Source: Candidatus Heimdallarchaeota archaeon | Lineage (GTDB): Archaea; Asgardarchaeota; Heimdallarchaeia; Heimdallarchaeales; Heimdallarchaeaceae | DNA length: 64,000 nt | Direction: 5' to 3' | Assembly (NCBI GenBank): GCA_021399395.1 | Contig: JAAFKJ010000043.1 | Coordinates: 18,545-82,544 of the forward strand | In this document: positions 44,060 through 49,641 of the stretch, in pieces | Position numbering within the stretch: the first letter of the stretch is position 1 | Layout: the number at the start of each line of letters is the position of its first letter | The notes under the pieces: model-generated | Databases searched by the model: none | Seen by the model: the letters and a program-made list of their open reading frames with translations, nothing else | Told to the model about the DNA's origin: nothing | Position numbers and translations under genes: made by a program

Positions 44060-44779
44060 ATGGAAAAAAAACTTCTCAAACGAATGGAGAATTTCAAGAA
44101 TACTCCAGATCGCTTAAAATTCGAATTATTAAGAGAATTGTCCGAATTACCAGAAGAAGAACATATTACTAATTTTCTTCTCAATGTAGTTGAAAATGAG
44201 AAATATGATAGAATTCGAATAAATGCTATTCTTAATCTGAAAAAATATGAAAGTGATTTGATAGTTGAAAAACTCAAAATAATCTTCTCATTTGAGCGTG
44301 ATAAAAGTGTGAGACTTGTAATTGTTGAAACACTTGGAGAAAGAGACTCAGATGAAATTGAAGACTTTTTCCAACAAGTTGCTATTAAAGATCTTAATGA
44401 TATTGTACGTGCAACAGCTATTAGAAAACTCCATGAAAGGGAAAATATAGATCAAACCGTAATGCACGACTTACTATTAGATGTTATTCAGAATGATTCT
44501 TCTGTTTTTCCAAAACAAATTGCTCTAAGTGCTCTTCCATGTTACGCAACCTCAACCACTTATGACAAACTGAGAAATGTCTTCTTCAGAGAAGAAATGC
44601 TTCAAATGAAGAAACTTCTTTTTAAAACATTAGAAGAGATATCTACAAAATTTGAGTTGGATTTGGACGTAAAAGAACCAGGAGACCCTATATTTGAAGA
44701 CACTAAGAAAGCAAGAAGAAAAAGAAGAAAAGAACGTAAGAAGAAAAAATTGGATAAAGACGATTATCTTTATTTTTAA
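44060..44779 (+). CDS. HEAT-repeat protein with a C-terminal poly-basic tail
   Basis: Repeated xRxxAxxxL HEAT units (DRIRINAILNL, KSVRLVIVETLG, DIVRATAIRKL) and a KKARRKRRKERKKKK tail. Confidence 0.55.
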   Translation: MEKKLLKRMENFKNTPDRLKFELLRELSELPEEEHITNFLLNVVENEKYDRIRINAILNLKKYESDLIVEKLKIIFSFERDKSVRLVIVETLGERDSDEIEDFFQQVAIKDLNDIVRATAIRKLHERENIDQTVMHDLLLDVIQNDSSVFPKQIALSALPCYATSTTYDKLRNVFFREEMLQMKKLLFKTLEEISTKFELDLDVKEPGDPIFEDTKKARRKRRKERKKKKLDKDDYLYF

Positions 44780-44852
44780 TTATGAATCTGGTTTCTGAGC
44801 TACACACGTTATGAAACTTGGTTAAACTTGCCAGAGGCTTTTTAACCGTCGT

Positions 44853-46793
44853 CTAAGGTTGTCCCCTCACGTGTGTTGAGGGGAAGAGATCGTAAGGAAG
44901 AGGAGTACCCTTGAGGGAAGCGATGTTTAAAGCAGCATTCTCGTGAGAGTTGACCTGTTGACCACATTTTTTACAAGGGGCAACATCATGATGACCTTTA
45001 GCACGAGCAATCGTCCCTCCACAACCATAATGTCTGGTGCTGGTATGATAGGGGGGAACAGCTTCTAACTCTACATCATAGCTTAACTCTAGGGAAGCTA
45101 ACCAGACTGCTTTCTTGTAAATGTAAAGTTTATCAGGCATGTTATAGATGGCTTTAGCTAGCGCTCCTTTGGTACCGGTAGGGTCAGCGGTCAACTCCTC
45201 AATCTTCAGAGTCTGACACTGTTTCTTCACCATAACTGCAGCTAAGAAGTGAGGAAGACGACGAGTGATCTCACGGAGTAAACGGCTGCGACGCTGATAG
45301 ACTCGGTTGAGCTCACCCTTGAGCTTACACGAACCTCGAATATCGTAAACCTTGCGTTTGTTAAAGAACCCCTTATCTAATTCCTTGAGGACTTTATCTG
45401 TCAACTTCTGGTAACGTTTAGCTAACTTTAGCAAATCTGGAGGAAGTGGAACTGGAGTGTTAAATATCACCATATGCTGTCCCAAACGGTTGATATCTAC
45501 ACCTAACACTTTCTTCCTCCCTCTAGGAATGTAAGGGAGATAACTACGTAGGAGGGTAGAAGAGCGGAAAGAGGCATGGGATCCTTCTAGCACCACGTCT
45601 AAACTGGGTCTGAAACTAGGAGCTCTACCACTACTTACTTGGAACACTTTGAGTTCTGCACCATTCCGAATATACTCTAACACTTTTGGAGGAAACAGCA
45701 CTTGAGCAGAAAGCTTTTTCTTCCCTTTTAGAGGGAACCCTAAAGTGGTGGTTCCTTGCTTCTTGACTTGTCTGGTCAATTCACTTGCATTCCCTTCACG
45801 GGTAATAACATACTCTTTTTTCATTAATAGTTTGATTGATAATCTTCCTTGCTTTTTTCTTTTGAATGGGAGAGGAACAAGCTTGGCTACAGATAACCCT
45901 TGTAGTAACTGAGGGACACTCTGAATGATCTGGTCAAAGAGTGTGAAAACAACTATCTGCCTTACAGCAGAAAAGAGGTTTCGATTAGGGTTGCCTATTA
46001 TTGTTGCTAGTTCCTTAGCTAATTTCTTGAGACTTTTCCAACGAGATTTCTGATAACTGTTAATCCACGAAGTCACAAACGGTATGACTATCTGTTGCTC
46101 TTGTTTGAGGAGACGGAGTTTGTTCAGAAACGCTTGCTGGTTCTTTGAGAGAGAAGATAACTGGGCAAAGGTGTTGGTTTGGTAAGTTAGAGCGTCATCG
46201 ATTCCTTGTAAGACCTCCTGTTGAGTGTAAGAGGGTAAGGCTCCATTAAACACCAGATTGTTGGAGAAATAATGGTTCCTCTTTTTCTTTCTGCTATAAG
46301 AATCGAGTTGCATTCTTGAACTTGTCAACAGATTGATAATGTATCTTCGTTTTAGTTTCCAACGTTTCCCTAAACTACTTTCAGTGTAAGGGGAACGACC
46401 AAAGATTATCCACTCTACTTGTTGTTGAGGGTTCTTTTGCAGAAAGTTGAGTATGTTTTGCACTTTCTGTTCTTTATCCACTTTCCCTTTTACAGCTATC
46501 TGGAGCCAGTGGTAAGCACTTTCAGCGATGTTAGGGTTCTTACCTACAGCTTTCCCTACTTGGCGCACAAAGAAACGTTCTTTGGGATTGGCGCGATAGA
46601 TCTCAATTGCCTTTTTGACCACATCTTGAGGGAGGAGGTGGTATTGCCGTTCTTCTAACGTTCTGATTCGTTGATTAATTTCTTCTCGTTGGACTGATGA
46701 GTCACACTTTAGCGCTACCTGATAACTTCTCATCACTGTATCTAAGATAAGCGGGTGAGAGGTTTGAGAGGTGCTAACTGTTTGTGAGCTCAT
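44853..46793 (-). CDS. tnpB: TnpB/OrfB-like RuvC-fold nuclease with a C-terminal zinc finger (IS607/IS1341 type) and a ~200-aa N-terminal extension
   Basis: The C-terminal half has split RuvC-like motifs (LGVDINRLGQ...; LKIEELT; NSHENAALNIA) and a CxxC...CxxC finger (HYGCGG...CKKCGQQ). At 646 aa it is longer than typical TnpB. Confidence 0.75.
   Translation of the reverse strand: MSSQTVSTSQTSHPLILDTVMRSYQVALKCDSSVQREEINQRIRTLEERQYHLLPQDVVKKAIEIYRANPKERFFVRQVGKAVGKNPNIAESAYHWLQIAVKGKVDKEQKVQNILNFLQKNPQQQVEWIIFGRSPYTESSLGKRWKLKRRYIINLLTSSRMQLDSYSRKKKRNHYFSNNLVFNGALPSYTQQEVLQGIDDALTYQTNTFAQLSSLSKNQQAFLNKLRLLKQEQQIVIPFVTSWINSYQKSRWKSLKKLAKELATIIGNPNRNLFSAVRQIVVFTLFDQIIQSVPQLLQGLSVAKLVPLPFKRKKQGRLSIKLLMKKEYVITREGNASELTRQVKKQGTTTLGFPLKGKKKLSAQVLFPPKVLEYIRNGAELKVFQVSSGRAPSFRPSLDVVLEGSHASFRSSTLLRSYLPYIPRGRKKVLGVDINRLGQHMVIFNTPVPLPPDLLKLAKRYQKLTDKVLKELDKGFFNKRKVYDIRGSCKLKGELNRVYQRRSRLLREITRRLPHFLAAVMVKKQCQTLKIEELTADPTGTKGALAKAIYNMPDKLYIYKKAVWLASLELSYDVELEAVPPYHTSTRHYGCGGTIARAKGHHDVAPCKKCGQQVNSHENAALNIASLKGTPLPYDLFPSTHVRGQP
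44863..44883 (-). other. perfect 7-bp stem / 7-nt loop hairpin at the 3' end of tnpB (possible IS right-end or omega-RNA-associated structure)
   Basis: cccctca-cgtgtgt-tgagggg, read directly; it lies ~10 nt inside the 3' end of the TnpB reading frame. Confidence 0.5.
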
Positions 46794-46876
46794 CTTCTCT
46801 TCAACATATAATGAACAGATTAGTATTTAAGCTCGAGAAAACTCAACATTTTGGTGGTGCTTTTCCTCTCCGTTGT

Positions 46877-47110
46877 CTATGTAACCTTCCTGCGTTTTGT
46901 TCCACTCACTCTAGCGTATCCCAACACCACTTGGTTGTGTTGAAGATTGTTTTCCTCCTTCTCTTCTCCTATTATTTGTGCGAGTTTATATCTTCTATGT
47001 CCTCCCCTTGTTCTCCCGGAAGGGAGGAGTTTCTCTTCTCTTTCCCACCTTCTCAGTGTGCTAGCAGACACTCCTTGCATGGATGCTGCTATGCCAATTC
47101 TTACTAACAT
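46877..47110 (-). pseudogene. tnpA: truncated IS607-type tnpA (serine recombinase): MerR-like HTH plus the start of the catalytic domain only
   Basis: GVSASTLRRWEREEKLLPSGRTRGGHRRY is the IS607 TnpA HTH. The ORF stops right after VVLGYARVSG, the catalytic-Ser region, and the rest of the ~200-aa recombinase is absent. Confidence 0.6.
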
Positions 47111-47177
47111 ACCAGTTTTTTTGTTGTTCCTTTAGATAATGTTTGTGCTTTTTGGATAAGATTGAGTAAGTTTTCAC

Positions 47178-47819
47178 TCAGCAGTTGCTTACAGTCCAAA
47201 TGTATCCTCTTCTATCCTTTGGTCGGACCAACCTTACTTCTTTTGCAATAGAGTATAGTTCCCATCCTTTTAAAGCAGTTTTCAACTCAGTTGTTGTAAT
47301 AAATCTTAACGGAGGATCTGTTTTGAAATGAGGTTTTACATTACCTCCATAAAGAAGAAAACCTCCGGGTTTTACAGCTTCTATCAATTCTAACAATTTT
47401 GGTAAAGCTCCCTCATACAGATATTGCAGACATTGTATTGCTGAGATAACGTCATAACTTTCCGGTTGAAGTTCAAAAGTATCCATATCGGTCAGAAGAA
47501 TGTTCATCTTGTCGGTTACTCCCAAAGCTTCAGCTCTTTTTTCTGTGATTTCTATAGCTGAAGGGAGAATATCAACTGCGTCAACCTCAAATCCTAATTG
47601 AGCTAAGAAACAAGCATACCTGCCATCGCCAGTGCCGAATTCAAGAGCTTTTTTCCCCTCATGATCTTTCCCTTGAGTAAATAAGTAATATTCTTGTAAA
47701 GCATAATGGACATATTGTTGCGGCAACTCGTCAAGTTTGCCTTCCATCTGTTTTTTGTAAACATTGTCCCACCCGTCCATATATTTGTCAGGAACTAATG
47801 ACACGTATTTTTTCGACAT
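47178..47819 (-). CDS. class I SAM-dependent methyltransferase (TehB/TPMT-like small MTase)
   Basis: SAM-binding motif I (LEFGTGDGRYACFLAQLG) and post-I acidic residue (VDAVD) are present. Confidence 0.7.
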   Translation of the reverse strand: MSKKYVSLVPDKYMDGWDNVYKKQMEGKLDELPQQYVHYALQEYYLFTQGKDHEGKKALEFGTGDGRYACFLAQLGFEVDAVDILPSAIEITEKRAEALGVTDKMNILLTDMDTFELQPESYDVISAIQCLQYLYEGALPKLLELIEAVKPGGFLLYGGNVKPHFKTDPPLRFITTTELKTALKGWELYSIAKEVRLVRPKDRRGYIWTVSNC

Positions 47820-47952: not shown

Positions 47953-49641
47953 ATGAACTATAAAAGAATCCTGATTGCAAGTGGTTTAATATTAATAGTA
48001 CTTAATTTAACACCTTCTTTTTCTGAAGCAAAAGAAAGTTCTCAAACCGATCCAAGCATAATTGTTAACCAAGACGTGGATTTCTATTTCAATGTTACAA
48101 CTATGCGTACAGATATTTCAATTCGAAGTGATGGTTCTATAGATATTTATTATCTAATTGAATTCTTTAATCATCCAAATTCTTCATATAGCGAGCCTAT
48201 ATGGGTTTTTGATATCGGTTTTCCAAACGTCTATTATGATCTCGATTCTGTAAGAGCAAAAATAAATGGTACAGAAGTTACGGAAATTAACAAAAGTCCT
48301 TATGTAGATATAGGCGTAGAAGTGATTTTCAATTCATTTGCTATTCCTTTGGGATACACTGGTGTTCTAGAAGTGTGGTGTCATAATCCAATAATGGTTT
48401 TTGAAGATGAAAATGAAGGCTTCGGATCCACTGTCTTTCTACAAACATGGTTTTATTGGGAATTTGTTTACAGTCAAACCTTTAGAACAGTTCGGTTTTA
48501 TTTCCCTGATGGCTTAGAAGACATAACTGTGGTGCAACCACGAGTTTATGAATACGGTGATTTTACAACATTTGTCCACCCCACAAATAGTTCTCTATCC
48601 TATGTTCAGTTTTATGACATAGGGTATCCTGATGATGGTTACTGGGTTGGCGTCGCCTTTCCTGAGGATTATGCAAGAATTTTCAGTTCATTTTGGCGAC
48701 TAAAAGTTTTCGGAAATATTCTCCAATATCCCATGTTTGCTGTTGTAATTTCTGTATTGATTCTTGGTTCCATTATTTTAATATTAAATAAAAGAAGAAA
48801 TAAAAGAAAATACCTTCCTCCATCAATCAGTTCTTTAGGCGGCGGAGTAAGAGAAAAACTAGACCCCTCTGACGTAGCGATTTTGCTTGAAAGACCCTTA
48901 ACGCAAGTTGCATCTCTGATGCTTTTTGAAATGATGGAGAAAGGGTATATCTCTGTGAAGAAAACTGAACCGGCCTTAAGGTTACAAGTAGTAATAGATT
49001 CCGAGAAAAAAGCACAGTTACTGAAACACGAAAAGGCAATTATTCGAGGTATTGAAAAACGCAATAAAGAAGATATAAAGTGGGAAAAAGGCGCATCACA
49101 TGGTGCTATACCTCCAGAACCAGTTCATCAAGATGAGATAAAAATAGCTATAGTTCATCAGATTAAATCGGTTACTAAGAAAATGAAAGGATTTTCAGCT
49201 AGAAAAACACGAGATTATTATGAAGCAATTATTGAAAGAGCTTGGCAAGAAATGAGTAAGTCAAACCCAGAACTGAAAAATGCGTTCTTATGGATAATGG
49301 TTGATGAAAAATATGAACAACAACTCGAAAAACAAGGAGCGGATTATTACTATCCTCGATGGTATGTAAGCAGTTATTATATCTACTTGGGACGTTCTTA
49401 TACACCATCAAGTAGAAGTCATTTTGTGAGGATTCCTAAGGGATCACGTATCCCTCATTCAAGACCTGCAAATACGTTTATGTCCGGTCTAATTCACAAA
49501 CCTCAATCTCTCCATAATTCAATTAGAAATGTAACCAGACCTCCATCAACATCAAGTGGAGGAAGATCTGGTGGTGGTAGCGGTGGTGGATGTGCATGCG
49601 CTTGTGCTTGTGCATGTGCTTGTGCAGGAGGCGGAAGATGA
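47953..49641 (+). CDS. signal-peptide/single-TM protein whose cytoplasmic C-terminus ends in a Gly/Ser linker plus a (Cys-Ala)6 tail; candidate substrate of the downstream radical SAM enzyme
   Basis: N-terminal signal (MNYKRILIASGLILIVLNL), a ~230-aa ectodomain, a TM near residue 260 followed by KRRNKRK, a ~280-aa cytoplasmic domain, then ...PPSTSSGGRSGGGSGGGCACACACACACAGGGR. The stop overlaps the next ATG (ATGA). Confidence 0.6.
   Translation: MNYKRILIASGLILIVLNLTPSFSEAKESSQTDPSIIVNQDVDFYFNVTTMRTDISIRSDGSIDIYYLIEFFNHPNSSYSEPIWVFDIGFPNVYYDLDSVRAKINGTEVTEINKSPYVDIGVEVIFNSFAIPLGYTGVLEVWCHNPIMVFEDENEGFGSTVFLQTWFYWEFVYSQTFRTVRFYFPDGLEDITVVQPRVYEYGDFTTFVHPTNSSLSYVQFYDIGYPDDGYWVGVAFPEDYARIFSSFWRLKVFGNILQYPMFAVVISVLILGSIILILNKRRNKRKYLPPSISSLGGGVREKLDPSDVAILLERPLTQVASLMLFEMMEKGYISVKKTEPALRLQVVIDSEKKAQLLKHEKAIIRGIEKRNKEDIKWEKGASHGAIPPEPVHQDEIKIAIVHQIKSVTKKMKGFSARKTRDYYEAIIERAWQEMSKSNPELKNAFLWIMVDEKYEQQLEKQGADYYYPRWYVSSYYIYLGRSYTPSSRSHFVRIPKGSRIPHSRPANTFMSGLIHKPQSLHNSIRNVTRPPSTSSGGRSGGGSGGGCACACACACACAGGGR
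49591..49626 (+). repeat. hexanucleotide microsatellite (TGYGCW)6 encoding the (Cys-Ala)6 tail
   Basis: The sequence tgtgca tgcgct tgtgct tgtgca tgtgct tgtgca is read directly from the window. Confidence 0.9.

Follow-up and report, generated by a model that had tools for sequence, protein, structure and literature searches.

The 64,000-nt stretch of contig JAAFKJ010000043.1 from a Candidatus Heimdallarchaeota archaeon, called the window below and used for all the coordinates given here, contained on its minus strand an element of the IS607 family (Table 1). From left to right, the element was composed of a non-coding left-end region, a remnant of the transposase gene tnpA, and a tnpB gene whose protein was identical to GenBank entry GOP50_03700, encoded on a contig of 94.9 kb. 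A conserved structure overlapped the end of tnpB. On the left, the element interrupted the gene of an S-adenosylmethionine (SAM)-dependent methyltransferase, and on the right it was followed by a convergent gene encoding a HEAT-repeat protein. Taken as a whole, the segment is probably a non-autonomous, Heimdallarchaeota-specific copy of an IS607-family element with an intact tnpB and a 3′ structure that is most likely the scaffold of an omega-RNA.

Table 1. Location of the element, its component features and the adjacent host features in the window.
Feature	Position	Strand	Basis or remark
Whole IS607-family element, 2,389 bp	44802..47190	-	DNA homology limits, left-end and right-end alignments, empty site in L080
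Left-end non-coding region, AAGCAACTGCTGAGTGAAAACTTACTCAATCTT...	47111..47190	-	kept in >30 related loci (nhmmer)
tnpA remnant, 77 aa: MerR-type helix-turn-helix (HTH) and first ~10 serine-recombinase residues, including the RVS serine	46877..47110	-	Pfam, NCBIfam
tnpA deletion junction, 9 nt aligning to both sides of the deletion	46885..46893	-	blastn against L004
tnpB, 646 aa, intact; true start M1 or M21	44853..46793	-	open reading frame (ORF)
Expanded all-helical REC-like domain, residues ~33-305 (~270 aa), inserted in WED	45879..46697	-	secondary structure of the model
RuvC-I Asp433, invariant LGxD[IV]NR	45495..45497	-	family alignment A1; kept in distant relatives
RuvC-II Glu532, LKIExL, invariant	45198..45200	-	family alignment A1; kept in distant relatives
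His617 in VNTHxNAAxNI, at the canonical RuvC-III Asp position	44943..44945	-	invariant in A1; Cas12f alignment
Zinc-finger (TNB) region, ligands H588, C591, C607, C610 (H-C-C-C, not C4)	44964..45032	-	invariant columns, PF07282
Conserved structured region, candidate omega-RNA (right-end RNA, reRNA) scaffold	44802..44894	-	synonymous freezing, covariation, covariance model
Hairpin H1, CCCCTCA-N7-TGAGGGG; the loop supplies the 5′ strand of the pseudoknot	44863..44883	-	covariation
Hairpin H2, GGTTAAA...GCC-TCT-GGC...TTTAACC	44820..44847	-	six pairs with compensatory changes
Pseudoknot 3′ strand ACGTGTGT, last 8 nt of the element	44802..44809	-	pairs with H1 loop 44870-44876
Right flank AGCTCAGAAACCAGATTCAT: candidate guide and orphaned methyltransferase tail (…AQKPDS, stop)	44782..44801	-	collapse of conservation at the boundary
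ACTGT target-site motif, candidate target-adjacent motif (TAM); host DNA, codons W-T-V	47191..47195	-	5′ of the left end
Host SAM-dependent methyltransferase gene; last four codons and stop (…V-SNC, stop) from the element left end	47178..47819	-	

A first-pass annotation of the window had described an IS607-like block at 44790-47170. Such a block was indeed present, but its limits had to be displaced: on the right side, DNA homology to the related loci ended at 44802, and on the left side it ended near 47190-47195, so that the true ends were placed at 44802 and 47190. As TGT(A) occurs at both junctions, either end could be shifted by up to 3-4 nt. The IS607-like identity was borne out by the remnant of a tnpA of the MerR-HTH serine-recombinase type on the same strand as tnpB, with tnpB downstream within one element, which is the arrangement of the IS607 family. 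Terminal inverted repeats were searched for in the element and not found, and no further copy or solo right end was detected elsewhere in the window (tblastn, blastn, and covariance model).

The block had also been considered to be a recent horizontal arrival owing to its high GC content. The difference itself stands, with 42.5% GC within 44790-47170 compared to 34.4% in the remaining window. However, the element was richer in GC than its flanks in 45 out of 45 related loci (40.4% versus 33.6%), including copies at about 65% protein identity. The excess is therefore a trait of the family, and GC content was ruled out as a marker of recency.

The insertion occurred immediately after ACTGT (47195-47191), in the 3′ end of the methyltransferase gene, and changed the tail of the protein from VAQKPDS (last seven codons, then stop) to VSNC (stop). 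Reading across a hypothetical excision gave …W-T-V joined to A-Q-K-P-D-S and the stop, which matched all the methyltransferase homologues, all of them 215-218 aa long and ending in …W[TV]VAQKP... In a related metagenome-assembled genome (MAG), the syntenic locus L080 held an uninterrupted gene, in which GGACTGT was directly followed by TGCTCAAAAACC, facing the same convergent HEAT-repeat gene. The excision reading, the C-termini of the homologues and the empty site in L080 thus indicate that ACTGT belongs to the target and not to the element. Beyond the window copy, AC[CT]GT preceded the left end in 28 of 33 flanks, for an expected frequency of 0.0013. The YGT before the left end was usually identical to the final three nucleotides of the right end (left flank ...AC-Y-GT and right end ...G-Y-GT, the Y matching in most loci), and TGTA was observed at both junctions of the window copy. 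Elements of the IS607 family characteristically lack terminal inverted repeats and have the same short motif in the left flank as at the right end, where it serves as the crossover core; IS607 itself uses matching GG dinucleotides, and its reRNA runs past the right end (PMC10711439). By analogy, we infer that AC[CT]GT is a candidate TAM and that the host DNA from 44801 to 44782 is a candidate guide. Immediately beyond the right end, the orphaned tail of the methyltransferase gene persisted with its TAA stop and directly adjoined the stop codon of the HEAT-repeat gene.

A protein search with the 646-aa TnpB recovered more than 120 homologues with 39-83% identity, nearly all of them 620-650 aa long, and those with a named source were nearly all from Heimdallarchaeota or Heimdallarchaeaceae. 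When one genome per species was scanned, 79 loci turned up in Heimdall MAGs, and a single genome carried as many as eight diverged copies. The source MAG itself contained a second family member (P0037, locus tag GOP50_09695). A near-identical second copy was absent from public data, the closest protein being 83% identical. An exhaustive profile search among 1.84 billion cluster representatives yielded only 367 proteins at E ≤ 0.001; this TnpB lineage is therefore small and well separated. The kind of element is already known, as IS607 with TnpB, and TnpBs with a RuvC-III histidine were catalogued earlier. The features proper to the family are the large, structurally unmatched REC domain, the (Y)GT core with its 5-nt target motif, and the short pseudoknotted scaffold.

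The first-pass annotation had reduced tnpA to its MerR HTH followed by the first residues of the recombinase domain, and this was confirmed. The 77-aa ORF matched PF00376 (MerR HTH, 48 bits) and positions 3-69 of the 187 positions of NF033518 (IS607 transposase), and stopped just after 'GYARVSG'. The early stop results from an internal deletion of about 326 bp relative to the intact L004 copy, by which most of the catalytic domain was lost: in the blastn alignment, window position 46885 corresponded to L004 position 3583 and window position 46893 to L004 position 3901. An intact tnpA of 196-200 aa was present directly upstream of tnpB in six loci (L004, L006, L016, L021, L035, and L071), and the L004 protein showed the MerR (PF00376) and Resolvase (PF00239) domains. 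In the remaining loci tnpA was frameshifted, truncated, cut to its last 45-60 codons, or absent. Most copies of the family are non-autonomous, as is typical of the IS200/605/607 elements, and both in the family and in IS200/605/607 an intact tnpB usually has a dead tnpA, or none, beside it.

A derivative devoid of tnpA was present in two copies in the MAG HM4_B41 (L044 3883-4970 and L065 3883-4970), with the left end joined approximately 115 bp upstream of tnpB. The two copies were 92.6% identical over the 1,088 nt compared, from ACCGT onward (L065 ends at the contig end), and their left flanks differed. This pair suggests that tnpA-less elements are mobilized in trans. In ten loci (L013, L014, L015, L020, L022, L025, L039, L040, L043, and L053) only the last 45-60 codons or so of tnpA remained beside tnpB, and the tnpB promoter or 5′ UTR (untranslated region) may lie within the 3′ end of tnpA. 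The window copy would depend for its movement on TnpA made in trans by siblings whose tnpA is intact; the crossover would take place at the (Y)GT common to the left flank and the right end, comparable to the GG core of IS607. Transposition in the IS607 family goes through a circular double-stranded intermediate.

The intact TnpB beside a dead transposase had been put forward as a candidate for domestication, in which the host would have kept TnpB as a gene of its own after the death of the transposase. The decay of tnpA next to a tnpB under purifying selection, together with the lack of a near-identical copy mentioned above, would fit such a history. On the other hand, both transposon ends and the structure at the right end were intact, the orthologous site was empty in L080, so that there is no conserved synteny, and the insertion truncated a host gene instead of forming an operon with it. 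Most copies of this multi-copy family were defective in tnpA and yet occupied different sites, siblings with an intact tnpA existed, and the tnpA-less copies had apparently been copied. Purifying selection between paralogous copies reflects the lineage of the element, not the host. An exaptation comparable to that of TldR would show lost ends and a fixed synteny, whereas here the ends were present and the L080 site vacant. We consider domestication of the window copy to be very unlikely; this copy is a routine decayed insertion sequence, and it would be wrong to present it as a domesticated nuclease.

The HTH-only remnant could also form with TnpB a two-gene module resembling toxin-antitoxin systems, of the type in which TnpB is linked to a ribbon-helix-helix (RHH) or MazE protein. 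The 77-aa MerR-HTH ORF persisted upstream of tnpB, tnpA was cut short at almost the same residue in L005, and some large relatives of TnpB showed weak AbrB/MazE-like matches; RHH/MazE-linked TnpBs are in addition known in the clade RIIIr-4 discussed below (PMC10691335). However, the tnpA remnants were heterogeneous across the family (3′ tail, frameshifted, or absent), hence there is no conserved HTH-only partner, and the data lean toward HTH-only remnants being neither commoner nor better conserved than random decay would leave them. We give this module hardly any credence.

The integrity of the 646-aa TnpB, already noted in the first reading of the window, was supported by the full ORF, by the deviation of only 4 of 154 highly conserved columns (the median of the other members being 5), and by a ratio of nonsynonymous to synonymous substitution rates (dN/dS) of 0.12-0.18 against six relatives. 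With so few deviations from the consensus and a low dN/dS, tnpB is intact and under selection. PF07282 (TNB domain) was matched with 28.3 bits for a cut-off of 26.3. An AlphaFold2 model built with the family alignment reached a mean predicted local distance difference test (pLDDT) score of 85, and its best matches in the PDB, using Foldseek, were all Cas12f or TnpB (E 4e-10 to 3e-6); the predicted fold has the WED-REC-RuvC-TNB organization of TnpB proteins. The protein had been described as an ordinary TnpB preceded by an N-terminal extension of about 200 aa. The extra length of ~240 residues is real, but it is not an N-terminal add-on: in the model, a WED strand (20-29) was followed by a helical domain, then by the remaining WED strands and RuvC, and the helical domain lay where Cas12 and TnpB proteins have their REC domain. 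A mis-called start does not explain this length either, since more than 120 homologues of 620-650 aa aligned from residue ~20. The REC-like domain modeled alone had a pLDDT of 87 and found no match in the PDB (best E 0.76), and its dN/dS was 0.05-0.13.

Within the middle of tnpB, synonymous sites were almost frozen among 46 elements at 45916-45944 (wider 45772-45996) on the minus strand, with a third-position conservation of up to 0.88. This stretch contained an invariant hairpin, ACACTCT-N15-AGAGTGT, in which no covariation was visible because nothing varies there.

RuvC motifs and a zinc finger had been announced for this protein, with an assumed D-E-D catalytic triad. Both were present, but the triad was D433-E532-H617 and the zinc finger was of the H-C-C-C type. 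In the alignment A1 (29 family members with 39-83% identity), D433, E532, and H617 were invariant, as were N619 and N623. The third RuvC motif of the window protein was VNSHENAALNIA, and a profile-to-PDB alignment placed His617 opposite the catalytic Asp of 'NADYNAARNIA' in CnCas12f and AsCas12f. The D/E/H pattern was kept in distant relatives, including proteins of 1,200-1,784 aa. The adjacent Glu618 was ruled out as a shifted catalytic residue, its column being variable (E/K/N/S/A/F/D/I/H/T). Asp554, in MPD, and Asp603 were considered as possible relocated catalytic residues; given its position, Asp554 presumably corresponds to an Asp which recurs in that segment of ordinary TnpBs. The first Cys of the zinc finger was replaced by His in all the A1 members, and the metal site probably persists despite the H-C-C-C arrangement.

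In the 2023 census of TnpBs, the RuvC-III histidine variants formed one of five major clades (PMC10691335). Altae-Tran et al. 2023 (PMC10691335) describe clade RIIIr-4 by the replacement of the RuvC-III Asp by His and by the lack of a canonical C4 zinc finger, two features which were both present here. The family fits RIIIr-4, an assignment made by these features alone. Like the window family, RIIIr-4 includes archaeal members, and AbrB/MazE-like segments were found in distant relatives of the window family; the RIIIr-4 members highlighted in the census are RHH/MazE-linked and thought to be immobile, whereas the window family is linked to a serine recombinase and mobile (PMC10691335). Very large relatives were observed (P0156, P0172, P0175, and P0184, with 1,327-1,784 aa, as well as P0144, P0148, P0158, P0220, and P0224), in which the D/E/H RuvC module was located at the C-terminus of long multi-domain proteins. 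The weak AbrB/MazE-like match was in P0172, and several of the large relatives ended in proline-rich tails.

The histidine raises the question of whether TnpB still cuts DNA. It is possible that the protein is a nuclease-dead, RNA-guided DNA binder acting as a regulator or as a transposition targeting factor in the manner of Cas12k, Cas12m, or TldR. The replacement of the canonical Asp by His617 points in this direction, as do some distant subclades which look immobilized beside tRNA genes with conserved guide-like flanks (see below), and exapted inactive TnpBs are known (PMC10691335). However, Asp433, Glu532, His617, and Asn619 were strictly invariant, including in the 1,200-1,780-aa relatives, whereas the loss of several catalytic residues is usual in TnpBs known to be dead (PMC10691335), and the window copy is borne by a transposon with normal ends. 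For RuvC-III Asp-to-His clades, a conservation-based argument for continued activity has been made (PMC10691335). Judging from the sequence alignments, the balance tips slightly toward a D-E-H RuvC that works with an altered metal site, because neither the family nor its distant relatives show any variation at the three positions; a loss of nuclease activity appears rather unlikely. In other nucleases with an RNase H fold, a His acts as metal or catalytic ligand, for example in the DEDH tetrad of the Argonaute PIWI domain and in the RuvC sites of Cas9 and Thermus, and this also argues against a dead binder.

The perfect hairpin reported at the 3′ end of tnpB was found as H1, a 7-bp stem inside the last ten codons of the gene, and proved to be part of a larger structure of approximately 85-93 nt which overlapped the end of tnpB and ended exactly at the right end. 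Among 46 elements, third-codon-position conservation at the 3′ end rose from about 0.6 to 0.77-0.95 only in the last 100 nt or so of tnpB, and conservation dropped to 0.24 directly after 44802. The structure that was tested on an alignment of 48 sequences combined H1 and a closing helix AAAC/GTTT with H2, whose inner stem has 3 bp, and with a pseudoknot joining the loop of H1 to the terminal ACGTGYGT. Pairing was observed in 95.5% of the cells, compared to 22-41% when the partners were slid by 1-3 columns. Double-sided changes affected 11 pairs versus 3.1±1.1 after shuffling, a value reached in none of 500 shuffles. In the pseudoknot, four of seven pairs showed compensatory changes, with covarying versions such as ACACACG/CGTGTGT, ACGCACG/CGTGCGT, ATGCACG/CGTGCAT, and GCTCG/CGAGC, and in H2 the inner stem was completely swapped from GCC/GGC to ATT/AAT in L028. 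Distant clades, at about 40% protein identity, rebuilt H1 as CTCCT/AGGAG or TCCCT/AGGGA and the pseudoknot as CGCATAC/GTATGCG or CACATAC/GTATGTG. The G·U pairs were frequent on the sense strand of tnpB (e.g., GU:24, UG:15); as they would be A·C mismatches on the opposite strand, the sense strand of tnpB is the one on which the structure is to be read. The covariance model gave a single match in the window, at 44802-44894 with 108 bits, and also found the homologous site in the clades at about 40% protein identity. The covariance analysis which had been suggested for this region uncovered a covarying structure where omega-RNAs lie. An Rfam scan of 44600-47400 gave no real match, with one sub-threshold mir-562 match.

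This structure is most likely an omega-RNA or right-end RNA scaffold, to judge from its covariation and position. As in TnpB systems generally, the presumed scaffold covers the 3′ end of tnpB, stops at the right end, and is followed by a candidate guide derived from the flank. A recognition site for TnpA acting at the DNA level would also end exactly at the boundary, and the tendency of the last 3 nt (YGT) to match the left-flank motif means that part of the segment is surely also recombination-site DNA. But serine recombinases use double-stranded DNA and need no intramolecular pairing, the 11 pairs with compensatory changes include a long-range pseudoknot, strand-specific G·U pairs are common, and the pairing is kept with other sequences in distant clades which lack tnpA. 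That the whole structure is a DNA site rather than an RNA is accordingly improbable.

If the structure is an RNA scaffold, we propose that its guide is the adjoining host sequence, the first ~16-20 nt beyond the right end (44801 to 44782). The TnpB-RNA complex would recognize a vacant site by the AC[CT]GT TAM and the match to the guide, and would cut it, and this cutting would promote the re-copying or the retention of the element. Re-copying or retention driven by TnpB has been shown experimentally for other TnpBs.

Several observations weigh against this interpretation of the element and its TnpB. The canonical RuvC-III Asp was missing from the window protein, and no experimental test of a TnpB with a RuvC-III His was found in the literature searched. 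The whole protein scored 35.7 bits with the NCBIfam model guided_TnpB (NF040570), for a cut-off of 100 bits. The 201-nt 3′ region had an ordinary minimum free energy (z = -0.46) and, as this value is uninformative, the case for an RNA rests on covariation. The nature of ACYGT as target DNA was shown by a single empty site, that of L080. Lastly, no intact tnpA was seen within the window.

Compared to IS607 of Helicobacter pylori and to ISXfa1 (PMC10711439), the family is alike in the MerR-HTH serine-recombinase tnpA (present in the sibling loci), in the order and strand of tnpB, in the lack of terminal inverted repeats, in the motif that the left flank has in common with the right end, and in a scaffold extending over the 3′ end of tnpB to the right end. 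It differs by its core, (Y)GT instead of GG, with a 5-nt target AC[CT]GT, by a TnpB of ~645 aa with a D-E-H RuvC instead of ~400 aa, and by its host range, Heimdallarchaeota. With ISDra2 TnpB (8h1j), ISFba1 TnpB (8iaz), and Cas12f (8j3r, 8hr5), the predicted protein shares the WED-REC-RuvC-TNB fold and the NAAxNI helix, whereas its REC of ~270 aa is all-helical and without structural match, its RuvC-I motif is D[IV]NR and not DxG, and its third catalytic residue is His. The RNAs of ISDra2 and ISFba1 TnpB and of Cas12f also have a pseudoknotted scaffold beside the guide.

The Fanzor proteins are similar in size and likewise descend from an IS607-type TnpB lineage. Their defining marks are a RuvC-II Glu at a relocated position and, at RuvC-I, a DPG motif (PMC10711439). 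An affinity with Fanzor was ruled out, as RuvC-I reads GVDINR, the Glu is at the canonical position in LKIEEL, and Fanzor2 appeared only at rank 37 in the structure search. TldR, Cas12k, and Cas12m resemble the window protein in having an altered RuvC site, and the immobilized distant subclades may be analogous to them; they differ in that the window copy keeps its transposon ends, a polymorphic site, and the Asp and Glu residues.

Outside the element, a 562-aa ORF without Pfam annotation was located at 47953-49641(+). It ended in a Gly/Ser-rich tail followed by 'CACACACACACA', which is encoded by a TGTGCA-type microsatellite, and its C-terminus could be prone to slippage.

Two distant subclades of the family were associated with tRNA genes. 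The first (L060, L062, L067, L068, L069, and L070; e.g., L069 3965-6072) was observed in six MAGs at ~37-40% identity to the window TnpB, without tnpA and in a partly conserved neighborhood. Beyond the right end, at a distance of ~45-60 nt, the opposite strand carried a tRNA-Cys(gca) gene, and in L062 and L069 an 850-907-aa membrane protein was encoded upstream. The ~20 nt after the right end ('CGCATAGCCGCTTTGCTAA') were conserved between MAGs and the sequence beyond was not; this flank resembled part of the neighboring tRNA-Cys gene, in the region of its D-arm (14-16 of 17-22 nt), and in L069 the resembling tRNA-Cys stretch was preceded by ACCGT. From these sequences, the subclade looks like an immobilized TnpB with a conserved guide. 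In the second subclade (L055, L057, L058, and L059), a tRNA-Asn(gtt) gene was always present ~80-180 nt upstream of tnpB, which suggests a fixed genomic position.

For this uncharacterized TnpB lineage, the locus provides a list of parts: exact ends, a candidate TAM, a pseudoknotted scaffold, and an invariant Asp-Glu-His set. Whether RuvC-III histidine variants cut DNA bears on the flexibility of the RuvC site in the ancestors of Cas12. As a speculative and rather doubtful extension, the family as a whole could consist of active D-E-H RNA-guided nucleases, with an unmatched REC, a pseudoknotted scaffold, and an AC[CT]GT TAM, of which the tRNA-Cys and tRNA-Asn subclades would have become immobilized. 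If true, this would mean that RNA-guided proteins were domesticated repeatedly in the closest archaeal relatives of eukaryotes.

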